A stretch of DNA of 59,706 bases, counting the filler. It is 4 parts of 4 records of this genome, joined end to end, with 100 filler letters (N's around TTAATTAATTAA, not from the genome) between each part and the next. Parts side by side here need not be neighbours in the genome. Positions count along the whole stretch, not along the records: positions 26,259 to 52,095 come from DRR723986_8315; 3 more parts are not named here. One strand, given 5' to 3'. The position numbers and the translations under genes are program-made. Below are positions 13,358-52,505 of this stretch, piece by piece (position 1 is the first letter of the stretch; each line of letters starts with the position of its first letter). A model generated the notes under the pieces. It was given only the letters and a program-made list of their open reading frames with translations. It ran no database searches and was not told the origin of the DNA.

Positions 13358-13457
13358 NNNNNNNNNNNNNNNNNNNNNNNNNNNNNNNNNNNNNNNNNNN
13401 NTTAATTAATTAANNNNNNNNNNNNNNNNNNNNNNNNNNNNNNNNNNNNNNNNNNNN
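13358..13457. other. Artificial contig spacer
   Basis: N-run / TTAATTAATTAA (stops in six frames) / N-run, 100 bp; genes truncated on both sides. Confidence 0.98.
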
Positions 13458-13458
13458 C

Positions 13459-16400
13459 GAGCCGCTGCCACTGTCGGATGTGATGCCGATTTTCGACAAT
13501 CTCGGTTTCCGGGTGATTGGCGAGCACCCGTTTGAGGTGATTGATCGAACGGGTAAAACGGTTTGGATTCATGACTTTACCCTGCAATCCCACACCGGCA
13601 ATATGGTGGATATTCACCGTATTCGCCCGATTTTCGAAGAGTTGTTCCGCCGGGTCTGGCACGGTGAAGCCGAAAACGACGCCTTTAACCGCCTGTTGTT
13701 GTCCTCCTACATGAGCTGGCGTGAGATCGCGTTGCTGCGTACTTACGCCCGCTACATGCGCCAGATCCGGTTCTCCAACAGTCAGACGTTCATTTCCAAC
13801 ACGTTGGTCAACCACGTCAACCTGACACGGATCCTGCTGGAATACTTTGAGATCCGATTCAACCCTGAGCGTTTCAAGAGTAAGGGTAAAAGCGAGGCGG
13901 CCCAGCAGAAACTGGAAATCGAATTCAACGCCGGCCTGGATGAAGTGGAGAACCTCAGTGAGGATCGCGTGCTACGGCTGTATCTGGAGCTGATGCAGGC
14001 GACGTTGCGCACCAACTACTACCAGCCGGATGGCGAGGGCCAGCCCAAGCCCTACATCAGTGTGAAATTTGACCCGTCGCAGATTCCGGACATGCCGCTG
14101 CCATTACCCATGTTCGAGATCTTTGTGTATTCCCCTCGTGTGGAGGGGGTTCACCTGCGTGGTGGCAAAGTGGCCCGTGGTGGTTTGCGCTGGTCGGATC
14201 GGTTCGAGGACTACCGCACAGAAATTCTGGGCCTGGTAAAAGCGCAGCAAGTGAAAAACGCCGTCATTGTGCCGGTGGGCGCGAAGGGTGGCTTTGTGGC
14301 CAAGCGTCTGCCCGATCCGTCTGACCGGGAGGCATTCCAAGCAGAGGGTATTGCGGCCTACAAAACATTCATCCGGGGCTTGCTGGATATCACAGATAAC
14401 CTGGTGGATTCCGGCATCCAGCCGCCGGAGCGGGTAATCCGCCATGACGAAGACGATCACTATCTCGTGGTGGCGGCTGACAAAGGCACCGCCACCTTCT
14501 CCGATATCGCTAATGGCCTGGCCGCGGAATATGGCTTCTGGATGGGAGATGCCTTCGCCTCCGGTGGCAGTAACGGTTATGACCACAAGAAAATGGGCAT
14601 TACTGCCCGGGGCGCCTGGGTCTCCGTGGAACGGCATTTCCGTGAGATGGGCATCAACCCGGCCGTGGATGAATTTACCGCCATCGGCATCGGTGACATG
14701 GGGGGCGATGTGTTTGGTAATGGCCTGCTGTGCTCGGAAAAAACCCGGCTGGTGGCCGCCTTCAACCACATCCACATCTTCATTGACCCGACCCCGGACG
14801 CCGAACGCAGCTACAAGGAGCGCAAGCGCCTGTTTGAACTGCCGCGTTCCGCCTGGACCGATTACGACAGCAAGTTGATTTCAAAGGGCGGCGGCGTATT
14901 CAGCCGCAATGCCAAGTCCATTCCGGTCAGCCCGGAAATGAAAAAGCTGCTGGGCATCAAGGCGGACCGCGTTCCGCCCAATATGCTTATCAGTCACATA
15001 CTCAAGGCCGAAGTGGACCTGCTCTGGATTGGTGGTATTGGCACTTACGTGAAGGGCAGCGGTGAAAGCCACTCCGACGTGGGCGACAAGGCCAATGATG
15101 GCCTGCGGATCAATGGTGCCGAGCTGCGCTGCAAGGTTGTAGGTGAGGGCGGAAACCTCGGCTTCACCCAGATGGGGCGGATTGAATACGCCCTGAAGGG
15201 TGGTCGCCTGAATACGGACTTCATCGACAACTCGGGCGGCGTGGACTGCTCTGACCATGAAGTGAACATGAAGATCCTGCTCAACCGGGCGGTGGCCATG
15301 GGCGATCTAACTGGCAAGCAGCGCAACATCATGCTGGAGGAAATGACTGATGATGTTGCCTCGCTGGTGCTGAAGAACAACTACCGTCAGACCCAGGCCA
15401 TCAGTATCGCCAGCGAGGATGCCGCCACCCGGCTGGAGGAGTATCGTCGGCTGATGAATACCTTCGAGAGCGAAGGCAAGCTCAACCGGGCACTGGAGTT
15501 CCTGCCGGATGACGAAACCCTGTCAGAGCGCAAGCTGGCTAAGAAAGGGCTGACGCGGCCGGAACTGTCGGTGCTGATTTCCTACGTCAAAGGGGATCTG
15601 AAGCAGGTGCTGATCGACAGTAATCTGCCGGACAATCCTCTGCTGGCGGGTGAGATGTACAAGGTCTTTCCGCGGGATCTGACCAAGCGTTTCTCGAAAG
15701 AGCTGGGTGAACACCAGCTGCGACGGGAGATCATCGCAACCCAGATCGCCAACGACATGGTTAACCACATGGGCATTACCTTTGTGGAGCGCCTGAACCA
15801 GTCTACCGGGGCGGACGCAGCATCCATTGCCCTGGCCTGGATTATTGCCAGGGATGTGTTCCGCATCGACAGCTGGTGGGACAAGATTGAAGCGCTGGAT
15901 TTCCACGTTTCCGCGGATCTGCAGATGGAGCTGATGCAGGATCTGATGCGTCTAATGCGTCGGGCTGTGCGCTGGTTGCTTCGTAATCGCCGGGCAGAAC
16001 TCAATATCCAGAGTCACATGGAGCGGTTTGCCGACAGCGTCTGGGCCATTACCTCGGGTCTGCCGGAATACCTTGGCGACCAGGCTCGTGCCAATTGGGA
16101 AAAACGCAATGATCAGCTGATGGCTGCGGGTTTGCCGAAGGAACTGGCGTCGGTGCTGGCAGGAACCGGCTATCTGTATTCCTCTCTTGGTATTATCGAG
16201 GCACAGGAAGCCACAGGCATGCCGCTGAAAACGGTGGCCAACCTATACTACGATCTGGGTGACCGTCTCGACCTGACCTGGTTCGCTAATGCCATCGCAG
16301 CGTTGACGCCAAGTTCCCATTGGCAGGCCCTGGCGCGGGAAAGCTTCCGGGAGGATCTGGACTGGCAGCAACGGGCTCTGACCACCGGTGTGCTGAAAAC

Positions 16401-26005: not shown

Positions 26006-26158
26006 GATGCCTTTGCCGGGGCCTTGTCGGGCGCCAGTTCTTCGAGCATCGCTGCGATGGCGTCGAGTTTACCATCGGTTGAGTCATCATTCAGCCGGAA
26101 GCGAAAGCTGTTGGCGCCTTCGAGCCGGTATCGATCCGGAGCGGATTGCACTTTTTTA
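26002..26158 (-). CDS. mfd: Transcription-repair coupling factor, C-terminal fragment
   Basis: Manual translation KKVQSAPDRYRLEGANSFRFRLNDDSTDGKLDAIAAMLEELAPDKAPAKAS* resembles the TRCF domain end; mfd-csiV synteny. Confidence 0.75.
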
Positions 26159-26258
26159 NNNNNNNNNNNNNNNNNNNNNNNNNNNNNNNNNNNNNNNNNN
26201 NNTTAATTAATTAANNNNNNNNNNNNNNNNNNNNNNNNNNNNNNNNNNNNNNNNNNNN
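26159..26258. other. Artificial contig spacer
   Basis: N-run / TTAATTAATTAA / N-run. Confidence 0.98.
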
Positions 26259-26286
26259 GCTATACGTCCGTGCGACTCGCACTAGC

Positions 26287-26975: not shown

Positions 26976-29516
26976 TTGAACCTGGAAGTCGGCCTACACT
27001 TCTCGGTCGAGACGACGGATGGTAAAACAAGGCCTTTTCTACGAGCGCTCGCGTTGTCATACACGCCAATTCACCACCGAACTCTTCAAGTTGGGTGGGC
27101 TATTCTCTCTGCATTGACTTTCTTCTGTGAGACGGATTTAGCGGCGCAGGAGCGTCTACTAGATCATTTCCCTGCAGCGGCCGCCTCTGGTTGCATGACG
27201 TGCCATGCAGAAATCGAACCGATCCGCGACATCGGTTCCGAAATGCTTACGCAAATCATGGAACGGGGCTCTGAATTGGGAGATCCAGCAGGTTGTATAG
27301 TCTGCCACAACGGCGATCCGAATGAAAAGCTTGATAAAACGATCGCTCACGGCGGCAACGACTTCTATGCCGATCCCGGCAGCCCGTGGATCAACGACAC
27401 CACGTGCGGCCAATGCCACAAGGAGCAAGTTGGCACGCAGTGGCAAAGCCTGATGATGACCGAGGCAGGCAAGATCCAAGGCACCTGCTGGTCATTCGGT
27501 GCACTCACCGGTTATGAACATAAGTACGCAAACTATGCCGTTGAAAACCCCAAAGACCCTTTGGTTCGGCTTGGGACGGCAACGTACCGCAAATACATGG
27601 AACGCCTGAAGGAACTCGAACCGAACGTCTTCGTCGACTCCCACGAAGCGCTTCCGGACGCCGTTGGCTTTGACGAACTGGAAAAACTAGAGGAATCACC
27701 GGAGCTCGCCGCTTTCACTTACATACGCCAAGAGTGCAATCGCTGCCACCATGCGGTCAAGGGGCGATCTCGGAGAGGCGATTTTCGCGGCATGGGCTGT
27801 TCAAGCTGCCATGTGCCCTACAGCAACGAAGGTCTTTATGAAGGCCATGATTCGTCCATTCCCAAAGACACTCCTTCGCATCCACTAACGCACCAAATCC
27901 AGGGCACGCGTGACGCAACCGTAACTGTCAATGAAGTAAGCTACCACGGACTGCCCGCTGAAACATGTACTACTTGCCACAATCGTGGCAAGAGGATTGG
28001 TGTCTCGTTTCAGGGGCTGATGGAGTCTCCCTATGCATCGCCGTTCACCGAAGATGGCGACGAACAACCGGGACTGCACACCAAACACTATGTCGCGATG
28101 GAGCAAGACATCCATTATCAAAAGGGAATGAAGTGCCAGGACTGCCACACGTCGATTGACGTTCACGGAGATGGCTTCTTGGCACCAACAAATCTTGCAG
28201 CCGTCCAGATCGAATGTTCCGACTGCCATGGAACTCCAGATGCATTTCCCTGGGAGTTACCAATTGGGTTCATGGATGAGTTTTCGATGTCGTCGGCCGA
28301 GGGTAAAGCGAGAGGCGTGACTGACAAACAGTTGCCACACACCTGGGCGGGCATGAGCTACGACAGTCGCGACGGCTACTTGCTGACAGCTAGGGGCAAC
28401 CCGTATGAGAATGTCGTGCGCGATGGCGACGAAGTTATCGTGCATACTGCCGAAGGAAAGGACATTCGCCTGAAACCACTCAAGAAACTGGCTGACGAGA
28501 ACGCAATCAGCCAGCGTGGTTTAGTTTCAATGAAGAGCATCTCGAAGCACCTGGACCGCATGGAATGCTACACATGCCATGCAAGCTGGACGCCGCAGTG
28601 TTACGGATGCCATGTGAAGATTGACTACAGCCAAAAGGACCGTTGTCCTGAGATAAACGAATCCCGCCAGGGCTTTGACTGGGTCGCGGCGGGAAGAAAG
28701 CATTCCGATCCAGATCACCGGACTGATTCAGGAGAATCGGCTTACGATTTGATGATCCCCGGAAAGGTCACCGAGCAGCGCAGCTACCTGCGATGGGAAG
28801 AACCGATGATGGGCGTCAATGGAGAAGGGCGTGTAACGCCACTCGCGCCAGGCTGCCAACCTTCGGTAACAATCATTGGAGCAAACGGCAAACCTATTCT
28901 GACAAATCACATTTTCAAGACGCCAGCCGGTCTCGAAAACAGTTCAACCGGTCAGCTTGCGATCGATATGAGCCCTGTCCAACCACATACGATGACCAAG
29001 AATGCCCGCACTTGCGAATCATGTCACGCAAGCGACAAAGCACTCGGACTAGGCATCGATGGACCGAGACCGTGGAATGAAACACATTACGTTGACCTGG
29101 AGACAACCGACGGTACAGTGCTTTCCAAGCAAGCCCAACCTCAGATGAATGCGATTGAGAACCTAAATCACGATTGGTCTCAAATTGTCGATCGTGACGG
29201 TAACCAGCTAGCAACTGTCGGTCACCACTGGAAGCTTTCAAGGGCACTGAACAAGCAGGAGATTGAGCACATGCAGCGTGATGGCACTTGCATTGCATGT
29301 CACCAAGAGATCCCTGAAAACTCAGCCGCAATCAACCTGTTGCACCACGTTGCCAAGTATACCGGCGGGCTGCCAAAGACGAACGAAGAACATTCAAGCT
29401 TGGTTCACAAAATTGTCTTAACGAGCGCTTGGCTTCAAGTGCTGGGCCCTGTTGTTGCGCTTTGTGCGTGTTTCGCAGCAGGACGCTACGTATGGCGACG
29501 CCGCAAGAAACGCTAG
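26976..29516 (+). CDS. Membrane-anchored multiheme cytochrome c (12 CxxCH); start uncertain
   Basis: CMTCH, CIVCH, CGQCH, CNRCH, CSSCH, CTTCH, CQDCH, CSDCH, CYTCH, CYGCH, CESCH, CIACH; C-terminal TM helix + WRRRKKR. Confidence 0.88.
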   Translation: MNLEVGLHFSVETTDGKTRPFLRALALSYTPIHHRTLQVGWAILSALTFFCETDLAAQERLLDHFPAAAASGCMTCHAEIEPIRDIGSEMLTQIMERGSELGDPAGCIVCHNGDPNEKLDKTIAHGGNDFYADPGSPWINDTTCGQCHKEQVGTQWQSLMMTEAGKIQGTCWSFGALTGYEHKYANYAVENPKDPLVRLGTATYRKYMERLKELEPNVFVDSHEALPDAVGFDELEKLEESPELAAFTYIRQECNRCHHAVKGRSRRGDFRGMGCSSCHVPYSNEGLYEGHDSSIPKDTPSHPLTHQIQGTRDATVTVNEVSYHGLPAETCTTCHNRGKRIGVSFQGLMESPYASPFTEDGDEQPGLHTKHYVAMEQDIHYQKGMKCQDCHTSIDVHGDGFLAPTNLAAVQIECSDCHGTPDAFPWELPIGFMDEFSMSSAEGKARGVTDKQLPHTWAGMSYDSRDGYLLTARGNPYENVVRDGDEVIVHTAEGKDIRLKPLKKLADENAISQRGLVSMKSISKHLDRMECYTCHASWTPQCYGCHVKIDYSQKDRCPEINESRQGFDWVAAGRKHSDPDHRTDSGESAYDLMIPGKVTEQRSYLRWEEPMMGVNGEGRVTPLAPGCQPSVTIIGANGKPILTNHIFKTPAGLENSSTGQLAIDMSPVQPHTMTKNARTCESCHASDKALGLGIDGPRPWNETHYVDLETTDGTVLSKQAQPQMNAIENLNHDWSQIVDRDGNQLATVGHHWKLSRALNKQEIEHMQRDGTCIACHQEIPENSAAINLLHHVAKYTGGLPKTNEEHSSLVHKIVLTSAWLQVLGPVVALCACFAAGRYVWRRRKKR

Positions 29517-30335: not shown

Positions 30336-30507
30336 GTGCCTGCCTTTTCACTCAATTAGCGTTTCAAAATTTTTTGCGCGACCTATCGTCGCTCAAAACG
30401 TGTCACTTGGGCAGTAGGACACGCTCCGGGCCGGCGTGGGTGAATGGATTGAATCAGAAAACCCAAATTTTCTAGTCACTTTGGGTATTGCAGCAGCCGA
30501 GAATTAA

Positions 30508-30521
30508 AGTACAACTGTACT
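30508..30521. promoter_or_regulatory. BlaI/MecI/CopY-type operator
   Basis: Perfect inverted repeat AGTACA-AC-TGTACT (TACA-N2-TGTA core) 70 bp upstream of the blaI-like gene. Confidence 0.75.
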
Positions 30522-30591
30522 CAACGTAAGTGAGCTTGTACTTAGAAGTTCAATCTTGGAACGCGATTGCTAGCGTAAAGGCTCGGCCCGC

Positions 30592-30990
30592 ATGGAAAAC
30601 AGACCTTCACTGTCGAGAGGCGAAACGCAGGTGCTTAAAGCACTGTGGCGTCTCGAGAAAGGTTCGGTAGGCGAGATTCACGCCGCGGTGCCAGAGCAAT
30701 TGGAGATGGATTACAGCACGGTTCAAACTTACGTACGACGTTTGACTGCCAAAGGTTACGTATCGGCCCAAAGAATTGGCCGCAATAAAATCTACCGACC
30801 CGCAGTCCGCAAGAATCAGGTAATTGGCGAGGCGGTTGAAGACTTCCTTGACCACATGTTCGATGGCAAATTACTCCCCATGGTTCGCCATCTCGTTGAC
30901 TCGCGAGACGTTTCGCCTGAAGAGATTCAGGATCTAATGAAAATTGTTGAGCGTCTGCGGCGCGAGAAGGGGAGTGATGATGGGAAGTAG
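30592..30990 (+). CDS. BlaI/MecI/CopY-family repressor
   Basis: LSRGETQVLKALW, YSTVQTYVRRL..KG, FLDHMFDG; coupled to M56 gene. Confidence 0.92.
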   Translation: MENRPSLSRGETQVLKALWRLEKGSVGEIHAAVPEQLEMDYSTVQTYVRRLTAKGYVSAQRIGRNKIYRPAVRKNQVIGEAVEDFLDHMFDGKLLPMVRHLVDSRDVSPEEIQDLMKIVERLRREKGSDDGK

Positions 30991-32872
30991 TCAAGCTCTC
31001 CAGTTTGCGACCGCTCACCTACTGCAGCTTAGCGTTGTCATCGTGATTGCGGCCGTTGTCGTTCGCTTTGCAAGTCGTCGTTTGCCTCACCTGGCATTCC
31101 TGATTTGTATGCTTGCACTAGCAAAATGCGTGGTGCCGCCGGTGATTACAAGTCCCGCGGGACTGTTCACCCTTCACAACGCATTGTCGTTTTCGCCGCA
31201 GATGGATGTTCTCGACAGCGAGACCTTCCTGCAGCTCAAGCAGACCATGGGTGACGATTCCGCTGCTGCTAGTGCGCAGCCGCCGCTTTGGGGTTTCCCA
31301 ACATGGGGAGTGGTAACCCTGGCCCTTTGGTCGATCGGATCGCTGTTCCTGCTGTGCTATGCAGCGTGGAAGTACCGCAAAGTGACCAATATCATCGCTC
31401 GCTGCACACCGGCATGCCGTTCGTTTCGTGTCGAAACAGATCGACTCGCTGCCCAACTTGGACTCAAGCGGCGTGTCCGCGTCATGGTCTCGGCAGAGAA
31501 TTACGGCCCAGCGTGTGTAGGCGTGCTGCGACCGACGCTTGTACTGCCGCAAACCCTAGTAGCAAACTGGTCGAATCGCCTGCTCACGCCCGTTCTTGCA
31601 CACGAACTCGTGCATGCACGACGTGGTGATGCAGCCTGGGGTTATCTGCAGTTTATCGCTCAAATCATTTGCTGGTTTCATCCACTTGTATGGTGGCTTG
31701 GCCGTCACGCTCAGATTCTGTGCGAACGTTGCTGCGACCAAGAGGTACTCTCCTCTTTGAAGGTTGCACCAGCGGATTACGCCGAGAGCTTGGTGCGTGT
31801 TCTTGAAATGCAGAGCGTCTGCAAGCCGCTTCCGGTGGGATCTGGAATGTCGCCCGTTGAAATCACTGAACAGCGAATTCACCGATTGTCACAACCTGCC
31901 TCCACTCGGCGGACACATCGAGTCACCTGGGCCCTGGCACTCCTGTCAGCCGCACTTGTACTGCCGGGAATGCGGTGGGCGACCAATCCAATGTTTGAAG
32001 TCCAGATGGACCTCCAAGCGAACGATTACTCGCTACGCGTCAACGCGGCGATCGAACACGAGGACTGGAAGCGAGCAATTGCTCTGCTACGCCCTCTTGT
32101 TGAGAAGGACCCGCAAAACGCTGATGCCCTTTTCTTCCTGGGATATGCACTTCATGCGGAAGGAAGAATCGATGAAGCCATTGGTTATCACAGGCTGGCT
32201 GCAAAGTTTAAGTCTTTAAAGCCAATTGCGACCTACAACTTGGCGTGTGCTCTTGCGATCAAGGGCGACGAAGCTGAAGCGCTGGCGACGTTGAAGGGCT
32301 CCATTGCTGGCGGTTTTATCCCGCGAGACATGAACCTGACGGACGATCCTGACCTCAAGTCATTGTTCCGTTGTCCAGAATTTGCCGTGCTGAACGCCAG
32401 CGTGATCATGCAACGCATTACACCTGACATTGTCGAAAAGATTGACACGCGGACCGTTCGCAAATTGCTCAAGCTTCCTCCAGCTTTGCCTGCGTCTAGC
32501 GATTCCGCGGCGACCTTCAGGCCGGCGATGGCGAAACGTGCCGATGGTCCATCAGTGGCGACGACAACAGAGGTAACCCAAAATAGTCGTCGCCGAATAA
32601 TCGATTCACGCTACGTTACGAAATTACCTGAGAAGACTATCGCTGTTTTGTACCTTTCCCCAAGCAAAGACGACGTTTGCCTTGAGGCCAGGTTGAGGAC
32701 GCCAGGCGTTCCGACTGTTGATGCAGAAGTAAGAATGCAGCCTAAGGAAAACGGTTGTATTGAACAGACAATCGAATGCAAGATCGAGAGCTCGGGGCAC
32801 TGCTTCACTCGATCGATGCTGATTTCTCCCGAAGCTTTGCTACCTGTAGAGGGGGCATGGCAGACGATGTAG
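30977..32872 (+). CDS. BlaR1-like M56 metallopeptidase with TPR region
   Basis: N-terminal TM helices, HELVH zinc motif, WFHPLVW, ERCCD; then TPR (ALFFLGYALH, YNLACALA). Confidence 0.88.
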   Translation: MMGSSQALQFATAHLLQLSVVIVIAAVVVRFASRRLPHLAFLICMLALAKCVVPPVITSPAGLFTLHNALSFSPQMDVLDSETFLQLKQTMGDDSAAASAQPPLWGFPTWGVVTLALWSIGSLFLLCYAAWKYRKVTNIIARCTPACRSFRVETDRLAAQLGLKRRVRVMVSAENYGPACVGVLRPTLVLPQTLVANWSNRLLTPVLAHELVHARRGDAAWGYLQFIAQIICWFHPLVWWLGRHAQILCERCCDQEVLSSLKVAPADYAESLVRVLEMQSVCKPLPVGSGMSPVEITEQRIHRLSQPASTRRTHRVTWALALLSAALVLPGMRWATNPMFEVQMDLQANDYSLRVNAAIEHEDWKRAIALLRPLVEKDPQNADALFFLGYALHAEGRIDEAIGYHRLAAKFKSLKPIATYNLACALAIKGDEAEALATLKGSIAGGFIPRDMNLTDDPDLKSLFRCPEFAVLNASVIMQRITPDIVEKIDTRTVRKLLKLPPALPASSDSAATFRPAMAKRADGPSVATTTEVTQNSRRRIIDSRYVTKLPEKTIAVLYLSPSKDDVCLEARLRTPGVPTVDAEVRMQPKENGCIEQTIECKIESSGHCFTRSMLISPEALLPVEGAWQTM

Positions 32873-32879
32873 ATGGCCT

Positions 32880-32901
32880 GGGAAAAGAACCACCTTTTCC
32901 C
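32880..32901 (+). terminator. Hairpin after the M56 gene (possible terminator)
   Basis: GGGAAAAG-N6-CTTTTCCC; weak T-tract. Confidence 0.4.
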
Positions 32902-32963
32902 GAGAACTATTTTCAATATTTACCTTACAACAACGAAACACCACTGTGCATGCGGGCAACATG

Positions 32964-32973
32964 TACATGTGTA
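32964..32973. promoter_or_regulatory. Second TACA-N2-TGTA (BlaI-type) box
   Basis: TACA-TG-TGTA, overlapping palindrome ACATGTACATGT, ending just before the structured RNA candidate. Confidence 0.5.
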
Positions 32974-32974
32974 T

Positions 32975-33175
32975 GGTGCAGGAAAGACAGCTAGTTTGGC
33001 TGAGTGCGTTTTGATTGGTGTTCCTTGCCCTTTTAGGAAACGCCAGTTGGACGCGAGAGAGACTTAGCCGGCGAAAAGCAGATGGTTGGTGACCCCAGCG
33101 GATCAGTCCTCGTGACCTCATGGACCGGTTCTCTGGATCAGTAAAAAGCATCTTCGAAGCTGTCGATCCTGCACC
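32975..33175 (+). ncRNA. Candidate ~200-nt structured ncRNA (three-way junction), family not recognised
   Basis: Ends pair 16/18 (GGTGCAGGAAAGACAGCT / AGCTGTCGATCCTGCACC); two long internal hairpins with many G-U pairs; followed by CTCTTTTTT. Confidence 0.65.
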
Positions 33176-33259
33176 CTCTTTTTTGCTTGCGGCGAACGCA
33201 GTGGGATGAATTACAGCCGCTGGTGGAATAACCTGCCTGCGTGCGGTTTCTATCTTGGC

Positions 33260-33688
33260 ATGAATATTTATGCCATTCTTGCAGACGTCGTCGTAGCGAT
33301 TCATCTCGCCTACGTAGGTTTTGTCGTTCTTGGATTGTTCGCGATCCTCATCGGTCGGCTGGCGGGCTGGCAATGGATTCGCAATCCCTGGTTTCGCTTT
33401 ATACACCTCGGCATGATAGGGATCGTGGTCGTGGAGGCGTTGTTGTCGATCACATGCCCATTGACGACACTTGAATTCTATCTCCGCAGTGAAGCTGGCC
33501 AAACGTTCAACGAAGGAAGCTTTGTAGGGCGACTGTCTCACAACATCCTGTTTTTCGATATTCCTCAGGAGCAATTTACGACTGCTTACTGTTTGTTTGG
33601 GGCCCTAGTTCTAGCAACTCTCCTGCTCGTCCCGCCGCGAATGCCAGCAATTCTTCGCCGACAATCTGCTGGCCACGACCCCGAATAG
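33260..33688 (+). CDS. DUF2784-like membrane protein
   Basis: LADVVVAIHLAYVGFVVLG, IHL, CPLTTLE..LR, GSFV. Confidence 0.8.
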   Translation: MNIYAILADVVVAIHLAYVGFVVLGLFAILIGRLAGWQWIRNPWFRFIHLGMIGIVVVEALLSITCPLTTLEFYLRSEAGQTFNEGSFVGRLSHNILFFDIPQEQFTTAYCLFGALVLATLLLVPPRMPAILRRQSAGHDPE

Positions 33689-51789: not shown

Positions 51790-52095
51790 AGCCTGGAGGG
51801 CGAAACAATCATTGCCCAGCTCTGTCCGTAGTATGGTTGCAGCACCACATCAGCCGCCAAGCGCCAGCTTGCTGTTTCACACCAGCCGCTTAGCGCAAAC
51901 ATGCGGTTCCACATCGGCCGCCAGGCGCAAGCTTGCTGTTTCCACTGCTGCGCAACACATCCGAGCCCGGAGGGCGGCACATGGCAGTGCGTCAACAGCT
52001 TCTGAGCACGACTAATGTGTCGGCCTCCGGCCTGTCTTCCAAGGGAACTTCTGCACCGGTGGCTGACGCCACCGGCAGGGATTCTGCCGGGCTCC
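51790..52095. repeat. REP-like palindromic repeat cluster at contig end
   Basis: GCCCGGAGGGCGGCACAT (51965-82) inverted against ATGTGTCGGCCTCCGGCC (52015-32); palindrome CCGGTGGC-TGAC-GCCACCGG (52056-75); degenerate copy at 51791. Confidence 0.6.
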
Positions 52096-52195
52096 NNNNN
52101 NNNNNNNNNNNNNNNNNNNNNNNNNNNNNNNNNNNNNNNTTAATTAATTAANNNNNNNNNNNNNNNNNNNNNNNNNNNNNNNNNNNNNNNNNNNN
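52096..52195. other. Artificial contig spacer
   Basis: N-run / TTAATTAATTAA / N-run. Confidence 0.98.
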
Positions 52196-52196
52196 G

Positions 52197-52505
52197 AAAG
52201 GCCAGTTCGCTCAGGTGAACTATGCCGCAACCAAGGCCGGTGATCTGGGCATCGTGAAATCCCTCGCCCAGGAAGGCGCACGCGCCAACATCACTGCCAA
52301 TGCAATCTGCCCCGGCTACATCGGTACTGACATGGTGATGGCCGTGCCTGAAAAGGTCCGCGAAAGCATCATCGCACAGATCCCCGCCGGACGTCTGGGT
52401 GAGCCGGAAGAGATCGCCCGCGCGGTGAAATTCCTCGTGGCGGACGACGCGGGCTTTATCAATGGCTCGACGATCTCTGCCAATGGCGCACAGTTCTTTG
52501 TCTAA
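52197..52505 (+). CDS. phbB: Acetoacetyl-CoA reductase, 3' fragment
   Basis: KGQFAQVNYAATKAG (YxxxK), ICPGYIGTDMV, GSTISANGAQF. Confidence 0.9.
   Translation, partial: KGQFAQVNYAATKAGDLGIVKSLAQEGARANITANAICPGYIGTDMVMAVPEKVRESIIAQIPAGRLGEPEEIARAVKFLVADDAGFINGSTISANGAQFFV

Follow-up and report, generated by a model that had tools for sequence, protein, structure and literature searches.

Several described systems bear on the RNA reported here. 6S RNA is a rod-like helix whose large central bubble mimics an open promoter. CpxQ, which is derived from cpxP, exemplifies the sRNAs encoded at the 3′ end of an envelope-signalling operon, and RsaE/RoxS and the alphaproteobacterial CCUCCUCCC sRNAs carry pyrimidine-rich, anti-Shine-Dalgarno loop motifs. 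BlaI/BlaR1-like sensor operons of the type described below are abundant in planctomycetes. The operator core of the BlaI/MecI/CopY family is a TACA/TGTA dyad which is by itself insufficient for binding (PMC7253601). Annotated regulatory RNAs are few in the Planctomycetes-Verrucomicrobia-Chlamydiae group, for which one survey counts 8 distinct sRNAs vs. 345 in Proteobacteria (PMC9029176). A table of candidate RNA motifs by Weinberg et al. (2010) lists ‘Rhodopirellula-1’, an uncurated motif from Planctomycetes that also occurs in Proteobacteria, as possibly cis-regulatory and without an Rfam accession (PMC2864571); the comparison with the present RNA covers the description in that table. The literature on small or structured RNAs of Planctomycetes and Pirellulaceae yielded no description of the element, and no paper on Pirellulaceae sRNAs was found.

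The whole stretch of DNA that was analysed (59.7 kb, hereafter the window) contains, on the + strand at 32975-33184, a genuine small structured RNA that has been unclassified until now. Relatives of an M3 peptidase encoded in its neighbourhood place the locus in the Pirellulaceae. The RNA folds into a Y shape made of a closing stem (P1) and two arms (A and B), as detailed in Table 1, with a free energy of −88.3 kcal/mol (RNAfold; z = −5.16; none of 200 dinucleotide shuffles is as stable). P1 has 16 pairs over 18 nt, in which 32975-32983 and 32986-32992 face 33158-33164 and 33167-33175, and its first base is likely the 5′ end of the RNA. Measured from P1 to P1, the RNA is ~202 nt long in the window and 121-205 nt long in its relatives. 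All the helices listed in a preliminary description of this DNA are present, both in the sequence and in the minimum free energy (MFE) fold, and the shuffling test that it proposed as a check of the structure is the one just given.

Table 1. Coordinates of the RNA, its upstream region and the adjoining genes (window positions unless another locus is named).
Feature	Position	Strand	Basis
P1, 5′ strand (9 + 7 pairs with 33158-33175)	32975..32992	+	MFE fold
Arm A	32997..33070	+	fold, family model
Arm A base helix, 9 bp	32997-33005 with 33062-33070	+	MFE fold
Arm A distal hairpin, 9-nt loop; variable, missing from short forms	33006-33054	+	
GAGAGAG bulge of arm A, 7 nt; conserved	33055-33061	+	
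Junction segment GGCGAAAAG between arms A and B	33071..33079	+	identical in window and G001
Arm B, long irregular helix with conserved hairpin cap	33080..33153	+	fold, family model
Arm B capping hairpin, GGATC/GGTTC + GTCC/GGAC	33100-33131	+	
Arm B 12-nt loop containing TGACCTCA	33110-33121	+	
P1, 3′ strand	33158..33175	+	MFE fold, covariation
U-rich tract TCTTTTTT directly 3′ of P1; putative intrinsic termination site	33177..33184	+	
Block also conserved in G001; may be a promoter or processing region	32907..32974	+	22-27 identical per 30 columns
GGCAA at −20 of the window copy	32955-32959		
Operator-like TACATGTGTA	32964-32973	+	pattern scan; ends 1 nt before P1
TACAACTGTA operator-type palindrome, blaI promoter	30510..30519		pattern scan
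Two-part operator before blaI-like gene	window 30495-30550; L107 ~3652; L108 ~3531; L109 ~3809; L141, L144		
blaI-like repressor gene (Penicillinase_R family), first operon gene	30592..30990	+	Pfam PF03965, E 1.8e-29
blaR1-like M56 peptidase gene with TPR repeats	30944..32872	+	Pfam PF05569, E 5.3e-35, plus TPR families
DUF2784 gene, downstream of the RNA	33206-33688		

None of the RNA families in Rfam accounts for this structure. Rfam 15 at gathering scores has no match on the whole window, and at E≤10 there is none on the element within 32700-33400, where the sole match is an irrelevant 12.6-bit snoRNA upstream; at E≤1, eight member loci are also without a match. There are no tRNA or tmRNA genes in the window. 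The preliminary description had proposed either a novel + strand structured RNA or a divergent 6S-like RNA. The former is upheld by the compensatory changes found in homologues (see below) together with the lack of an Rfam match. The likeness to 6S RNA, namely a similar length and a long closing stem formed by the 5′ and 3′ ends, does not carry over to the rest of the molecule: RF00013 (gathering threshold 46.4 bits) matches neither the window, nor 32700-33400, nor the eight member loci, and in both the MFE fold and the consensus two long arms branch from a three-way junction, in place of a bubble-containing rod. The distribution is also narrow (a loop motif in 6/401 relatives; 3 true members in an order-level sample of 401 genomes) and linked to a blaI-blaR1 operon, unlike that of a housekeeping-type RNA, and the 6S reading was dropped. 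When RF00013 was run on five related genomes, no match was above the cut-off. In one genome (G003, L084:1501-1718, +) a rod-like hairpin of 218 nt (z = −2.10) with a T run after it reaches 28.1 bits with the full 6S model, and is possibly a divergent 6S RNA of the Pirellulaceae.

The remaining systems resemble the window RNA in part. As with the sRNAs at the 3′ end of envelope operons, its place is immediately 3′ of an operon for a membrane sensor, on the same strand, and its end is formed by a stem and U tract; by analogy it would be expected to extend a regulon post-transcriptionally. It differs from them in being larger, Y-shaped and from another phylum, in that its processing or co-transcription is putative, and in that two paralogues in one genome (G432) are found away from an intact operon. 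It shares with the anti-Shine-Dalgarno-loop sRNAs an invariant hairpin loop with two CCUC-type motifs, but there is no sequence or Rfam relation, a single conserved loop takes the place of several, and target pairing is putative. Finally, the bacterial Y RNA/YrlA group also has a closing stem from both ends and branched modules, whereas no Rfam match to it was obtained and a tRNA-like module was not recognised in the window RNA.

G-U or U-G pairs make up 10 of the 72 predicted pairs, the same number as was estimated earlier, and the opposite strand would have A-C at these places. The − strand of 32975-33184 folds with −67.7 kcal/mol (z = −2.56), and a covariance model scores 239.5 bits on the + strand of the window vs. 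17.9 bits on the − strand. The G-U pairs and the strand-asymmetric scores indicate a feature that exists at the level of RNA, as opposed to a DNA inverted repeat.

The comparison of homologous sequences gives the same structure. In a seven-sequence alignment fitted to the family model (A9, 328 cells), 92.4% of the cells pair and both sides have changed in 35 of 50 pairs. These values are not reached in any of 500 column shuffles, and when partners are slid by 1-3 columns, 31.6-41.2% of the cells are paired and 6-13 pairs are double-changed. The double changes occur in 12 of the 14 modelled pairs of P1 and in all 9 pairs of the arm A base helix, and in arm B the 5-bp helix below GTCC/GGAC covaries; GTCC/GGAC itself and TGACCTCA are invariant in 7/7 sequences. 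A six-sequence alignment shows the same covariation picture, while one made by MAFFT only, in which the short forms are misaligned, yields no more than the base of arm A and the tip of arm B. The substitution pattern thus indicates that the Y-shaped fold is maintained by compensatory changes. Since A9 was fitted to the model, unbiased support comes from independent single-sequence folds: the topology of P1, arm A and arm B is retained in eight further copies with z from −2.7 to −7.2 (−4.61 for G001 folded alone, and −7.02, −6.40, −5.22, −5.31, −7.17, −2.71 and −3.52 for the other seven). A shorter, two-hairpin form is found in G405 (z = −5.05). With the boundaries chosen for G047, the Y topology is not formed (z = +0.70).

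According to the family model, there are two conserved elements predicted to be single-stranded: GAGAG in arm A and UGACCUCA in the loop of arm B. Arm A consists of a 7-9-bp base helix capped by the purine element, which in long forms is the GAGAGAG bulge with the variable hairpin inserted, whereas in short forms arm A ends in a GGGUGAGAG loop. In arm B, the loop is 10-14 nt long and has the near-invariant UGACCUCA as its core, preceded by a second CCUC in most members. The junction segment GGCGAAAAG shows little conservation in more distant members. A pseudoknot between loop and bulge (GAGAG with CCUC) was considered and rejected, as by eye it amounts to at most 3-5 pairs and is inconsistent. 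The same applies to a conserved small ORF starting at the AUG of the loop, for which the start varies (AUG, GUG, CUG) and the stops are unaligned. The 20-codon ORF at 33082-33144, which had been called probably incidental, does exist and is not conserved, having a frame shift in G001.

The limits of the RNA are seen both in its closest relative and within a single genome. Between the window and G001, whose M3 peptidase is 87% identical, 24-28 of 30 columns are identical over the RNA except in distal arm A, vs. ~19-25 per 30 columns in neighbouring coding sequence and 3-17 in the next intergenic spacer; conservation also reaches ~65 nt upstream of P1. The similarity between the two G432 paralogues spans the first base of P1 to just past the U tract and their flanks are unrelated, which marks the ends of the RNA unit. 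Most copies have a T-rich tract 3′ of P1 (weak in G361 and absent from G417). A terminator consensus scan did not call the U-rich tract because P1 closes a multi-branch loop, and P1 with its U tract is an unusual geometry for a terminator. Sequence and structure are conserved on one strand and between defined ends, as is expected of an sRNA gene. The case for a new RNA family is well supported: its boundaries are clear, its fold is defined and it carries two conserved single-stranded elements.

Among the genomes searched, the family is confined to a sub-group of the Pirellulaceae. Ten further copies, of which two are weak or partial, came from nine Pirellulaceae genomes by means of covariance-model, motif and synteny searches, which also gave one doubtful copy. 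Using nhmmer on 80 loci around relatives of the M3 peptidase, the RNA was found in one (L001, that is G001), which is also the only place where the gene order of the window is kept. In 401 Pirellulaceae genomes, blastn gave matches in three, of which only G001 is real; those in G043 and G143 are short, lie inside coding-looking sequence and were dropped. A covariance model built from the window and G001 (R1) and run over 151 relatives found full-length matches in G002 (62.8 bits), G408 (56.8 bits) and G432 (two copies, 35.5 and 29.7 bits), and weak matches in G434 (E 0.16) and G016 (E 0.5) that were treated as noise. The loop motif with ≤1 mismatch occurs 7 times, in 6 of 401 relatives, vs. 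once for the reversed control, and its search added G405, where the match is limited to the arm B hairpin (32 bits), and G047, which is a weak member (23.1 bits, and the positive z-score given above). Behind orthologues of BlaI, model R2 identified copies in G361 (63.5 bits), G417 (21.5 bits) and G217 (17.6 bits), and G383 has the doubtful candidate (E 0.15, z = −3.66). In an even sample of 151 genomes of the family, with 16 of several hundred first-look candidates scored per genome, R2 found G001 only, which given this scope is a weak negative.

In the order-level sample of 401 genomes, the loop motif gave 4 matches (3 of them known members) vs. 3 for controls, and no new true member; the match in G571 was rejected by the model. 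A metagenome scan with the exact 20-mer of the window returned 0 stretches, and its relaxed form gave 8 loci, in coding-like or low-complexity contexts, which were all dropped as chance; in 4 the model match is confined to the 20-mer, and the remaining 4 have no model match. No RNA run is listed among the sequencing runs that contain the stretch, and the contig sets of two metatranscriptomes gave 0 matching records, which is uninformative as to expression. The DNA contigs of sequencing runs X5 and X8 match parts of the RNA stretch only. One of these, a 151-nt contig (record 3 of X8), matches the arm B hairpin only (window 33097-33135) with 5 differences and unrelated flanks, and may represent an additional, divergent family member in an aquatic metagenome.

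The main functional lead, which the preliminary description did not contain, is the link to the blaI-blaR1 operon. In the window, the RNA starts 103 nt after the end of the blaR1-like gene, on the same strand. Eight copies were found without the use of synteny (window, G001, G002, G408, G432a, G432b, G047 and G405), and 6 of these lie 40-180 nt 3′ of an M56-TPR gene on the same strand (the gene is split in G405). In the case of G432b, an M56 fragment is ~0.9 kb away, and G432a has no blaI/blaR1 or M56 gene within 7 kb. Conversely, among the 8 genomes (window included) with a BlaI of at least 70% identity, 7 have the RNA behind the operon. The exception, G350, has an operon that ends with a simple 11-bp hairpin and a T-rich tail (L143:2150-2255, −), which is either the ancestral condition or the result of losing the RNA; model R2 detected no Y-shaped RNA behind the operon in G350 or G421. 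The genes that follow the RNA vary, namely: DUF2784, a convergent SecA, an amino-acid kinase on the other strand, DUF84 and ROK. The constant position is just 3′ of the blaI-blaR1 operon and on its strand, as for 3′UTR-derived sRNAs. The G405 locus looks decayed: its blaR1-like gene is in two frames and only a remnant of blaI is left. A long near-perfect palindrome (L103:1640-1700, −) also separates its TPR gene from the shortened RNA.

The operator sequences provide a second possible connection. AGTACAnnTGTACT, followed ~20 nt downstream by TGTACTTA, precedes blaI in the window, G002, G408, G361 and G217, and this two-part arrangement is compatible with a predicted autoregulation of the BlaI/BlaR1-TPR operon. 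In the window, TACANNTGTA occurs twice in 59.7 kb, vs. 0.11 times expected, once in the blaI promoter and once just before the RNA, where the site matches 11 of the 12 positions of the operon's own operator palindrome. The RNA-proximal site is peculiar to the window: G001 differs from the 12-mer at 3 positions, and within 230 nt upstream of the RNA in the other genomes nothing has fewer than 3. As the site is not kept elsewhere, we treat it as suggestive only; it may be due to chance or be specific to the lineage. What recurs upstream of the RNA is GGCAA(C/G): in the 80 nt before 10 copies, GGCAA occurs 14 times vs. 1.8 expected, often at ~−20. Readings of it as part of a sigma-70, sigma-54 or ECF promoter were rejected, as the spacings misfit by eye. 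The scan of the RNA region gave no sigma-70-like promoter site, planctomycete promoters being outside the models of the scan.

On comparative evidence, then, the locus encodes a discrete, strand-specific and structurally constrained RNA gene tied to the blaI-blaR1 operon. Its almost constant place after a BlaI/BlaR1-type operon makes a role as a regulatory RNA linked to that signalling system probable. The reading we favour, at a little short of an even chance, is that the RNA is made together with the operon or under the same repressor, and that its pyrimidine loop pairs with GAGG-type ribosome-binding sites or binds a protein. The BlaR1-type sensor-protease would relieve repression by BlaI and the RNA would be produced, either from a promoter of its own, which in the window genome would overlap a copy of the operator motif of the operon, or from an operon transcript that reads through and is processed. 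The contact surface would be the pyrimidine-rich loop of arm B, with its two CCUC-type, anti-Shine-Dalgarno-like motifs, which could base-pair with target mRNAs at ribosome-binding regions that contain GAGG; binding of a protein by this loop is held to be less likely than mRNA pairing. A more specific version, possible but doubtful in our judgement, makes the RNA the non-coding output of the BlaR1 pathway, repressed by BlaI through the operator here and produced by read-through elsewhere, with the UGACCUCA loop silencing mRNAs when the sensor fires. If true, such a BlaI-repressed output arm would give Planctomycetes their first described sRNA regulon and BlaI/BlaR1 systems their first RNA effector. 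Through its operon partner, the RNA offers a concrete way to approach how planctomycetes regulate genes after transcription and how they signal through BlaR1-type proteins.

Other explanations of the locus differ in how far the same observations accommodate them. The RNA could act in cis only, as a module at the 3′ end of the blaI-blaR1 mRNA that terminates transcription, blocks 3′ exonucleases or guides processing, with no function in trans. The same-strand position 40-180 nt past the stop of the M56-TPR gene and the U-rich tract after P1 are in keeping with this, as are the plain terminator-like hairpin at the equivalent position of G350 and the U tract that directly follows the conserved arm B hairpin in G405. 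However, a terminator needs neither an invariant 8-nt loop, nor a conserved GAGAG, nor three covarying helices; the G432 copies persist apart from an intact operon with unchanged boundaries, 65 nt of upstream sequence are conserved between the window and G001, and in G405 a long palindrome separates the gene from the RNA. We therefore regard a purely cis-acting module as unlikely. We are similarly sceptical of an RNA that binds or sequesters a protein in the manner of 6S RNA, Y RNA or CsrB, with the loop and the purine element as recognition sites. The GTCC/GGAC pairs that flank the loop are invariant rather than covarying, which suggests sequence-specific recognition of the hairpin, and for an sRNA that acts by base-pairing the molecule would be unusually large and structured. 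Against this, no Rfam family matches, 6S and Y-RNA-like models included, the lack of a rod with a central bubble speaks against 6S in particular, the narrow distribution tells against RNA polymerase or any other housekeeping partner, and no candidate partner gene besides blaI and blaR1 is linked.

Two further readings fit far less well than a regulatory RNA of the BlaI/BlaR1 system. The RNA could be a 5′ leader or riboswitch of the DUF2784 gene, whose start is 21 nt from the end of the U tract, an arrangement retained in G001. Yet the downstream gene differs among genomes and is often convergent, and only the upstream operon is constant; the variability of the gene after the RNA in effect excludes a leader, and we give it very little weight. 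The long, complementary terminal arms might also be read as the inverted repeats of a MITE or of another DNA-level structure, or as a chance fold, and this has next to no probability in our view. The RNA occurs once in the window, with no second copy within it, and once per genome except for the two copies in G432; there is no target-site duplication, the flanks of the G432 paralogues are unrelated, and the G-U pairs, strand-asymmetric scores and compensatory changes all argue for an RNA. The earlier view that this is not a MITE is thus borne out by its single copy in most genomes.

Some features of the window lie apart from the RNA. Runs of N around TTAATTAATTAA at 13358-13463, 26155-26259 and 52090-52199 show that contigs were joined by artificial linkers, and the RNA sits on the piece from ~26260 to 52090. 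Just before the end of that contig, at 51838-51942, there are three ~41-nt direct repeats with 32-nt spacing that are 71-85% alike. At 26976-29516, the + strand encodes an 846-aa multi-haem cytochrome with c7, c3 and MtrC/MtrF-like domains, adjoining a PhzF-like gene.
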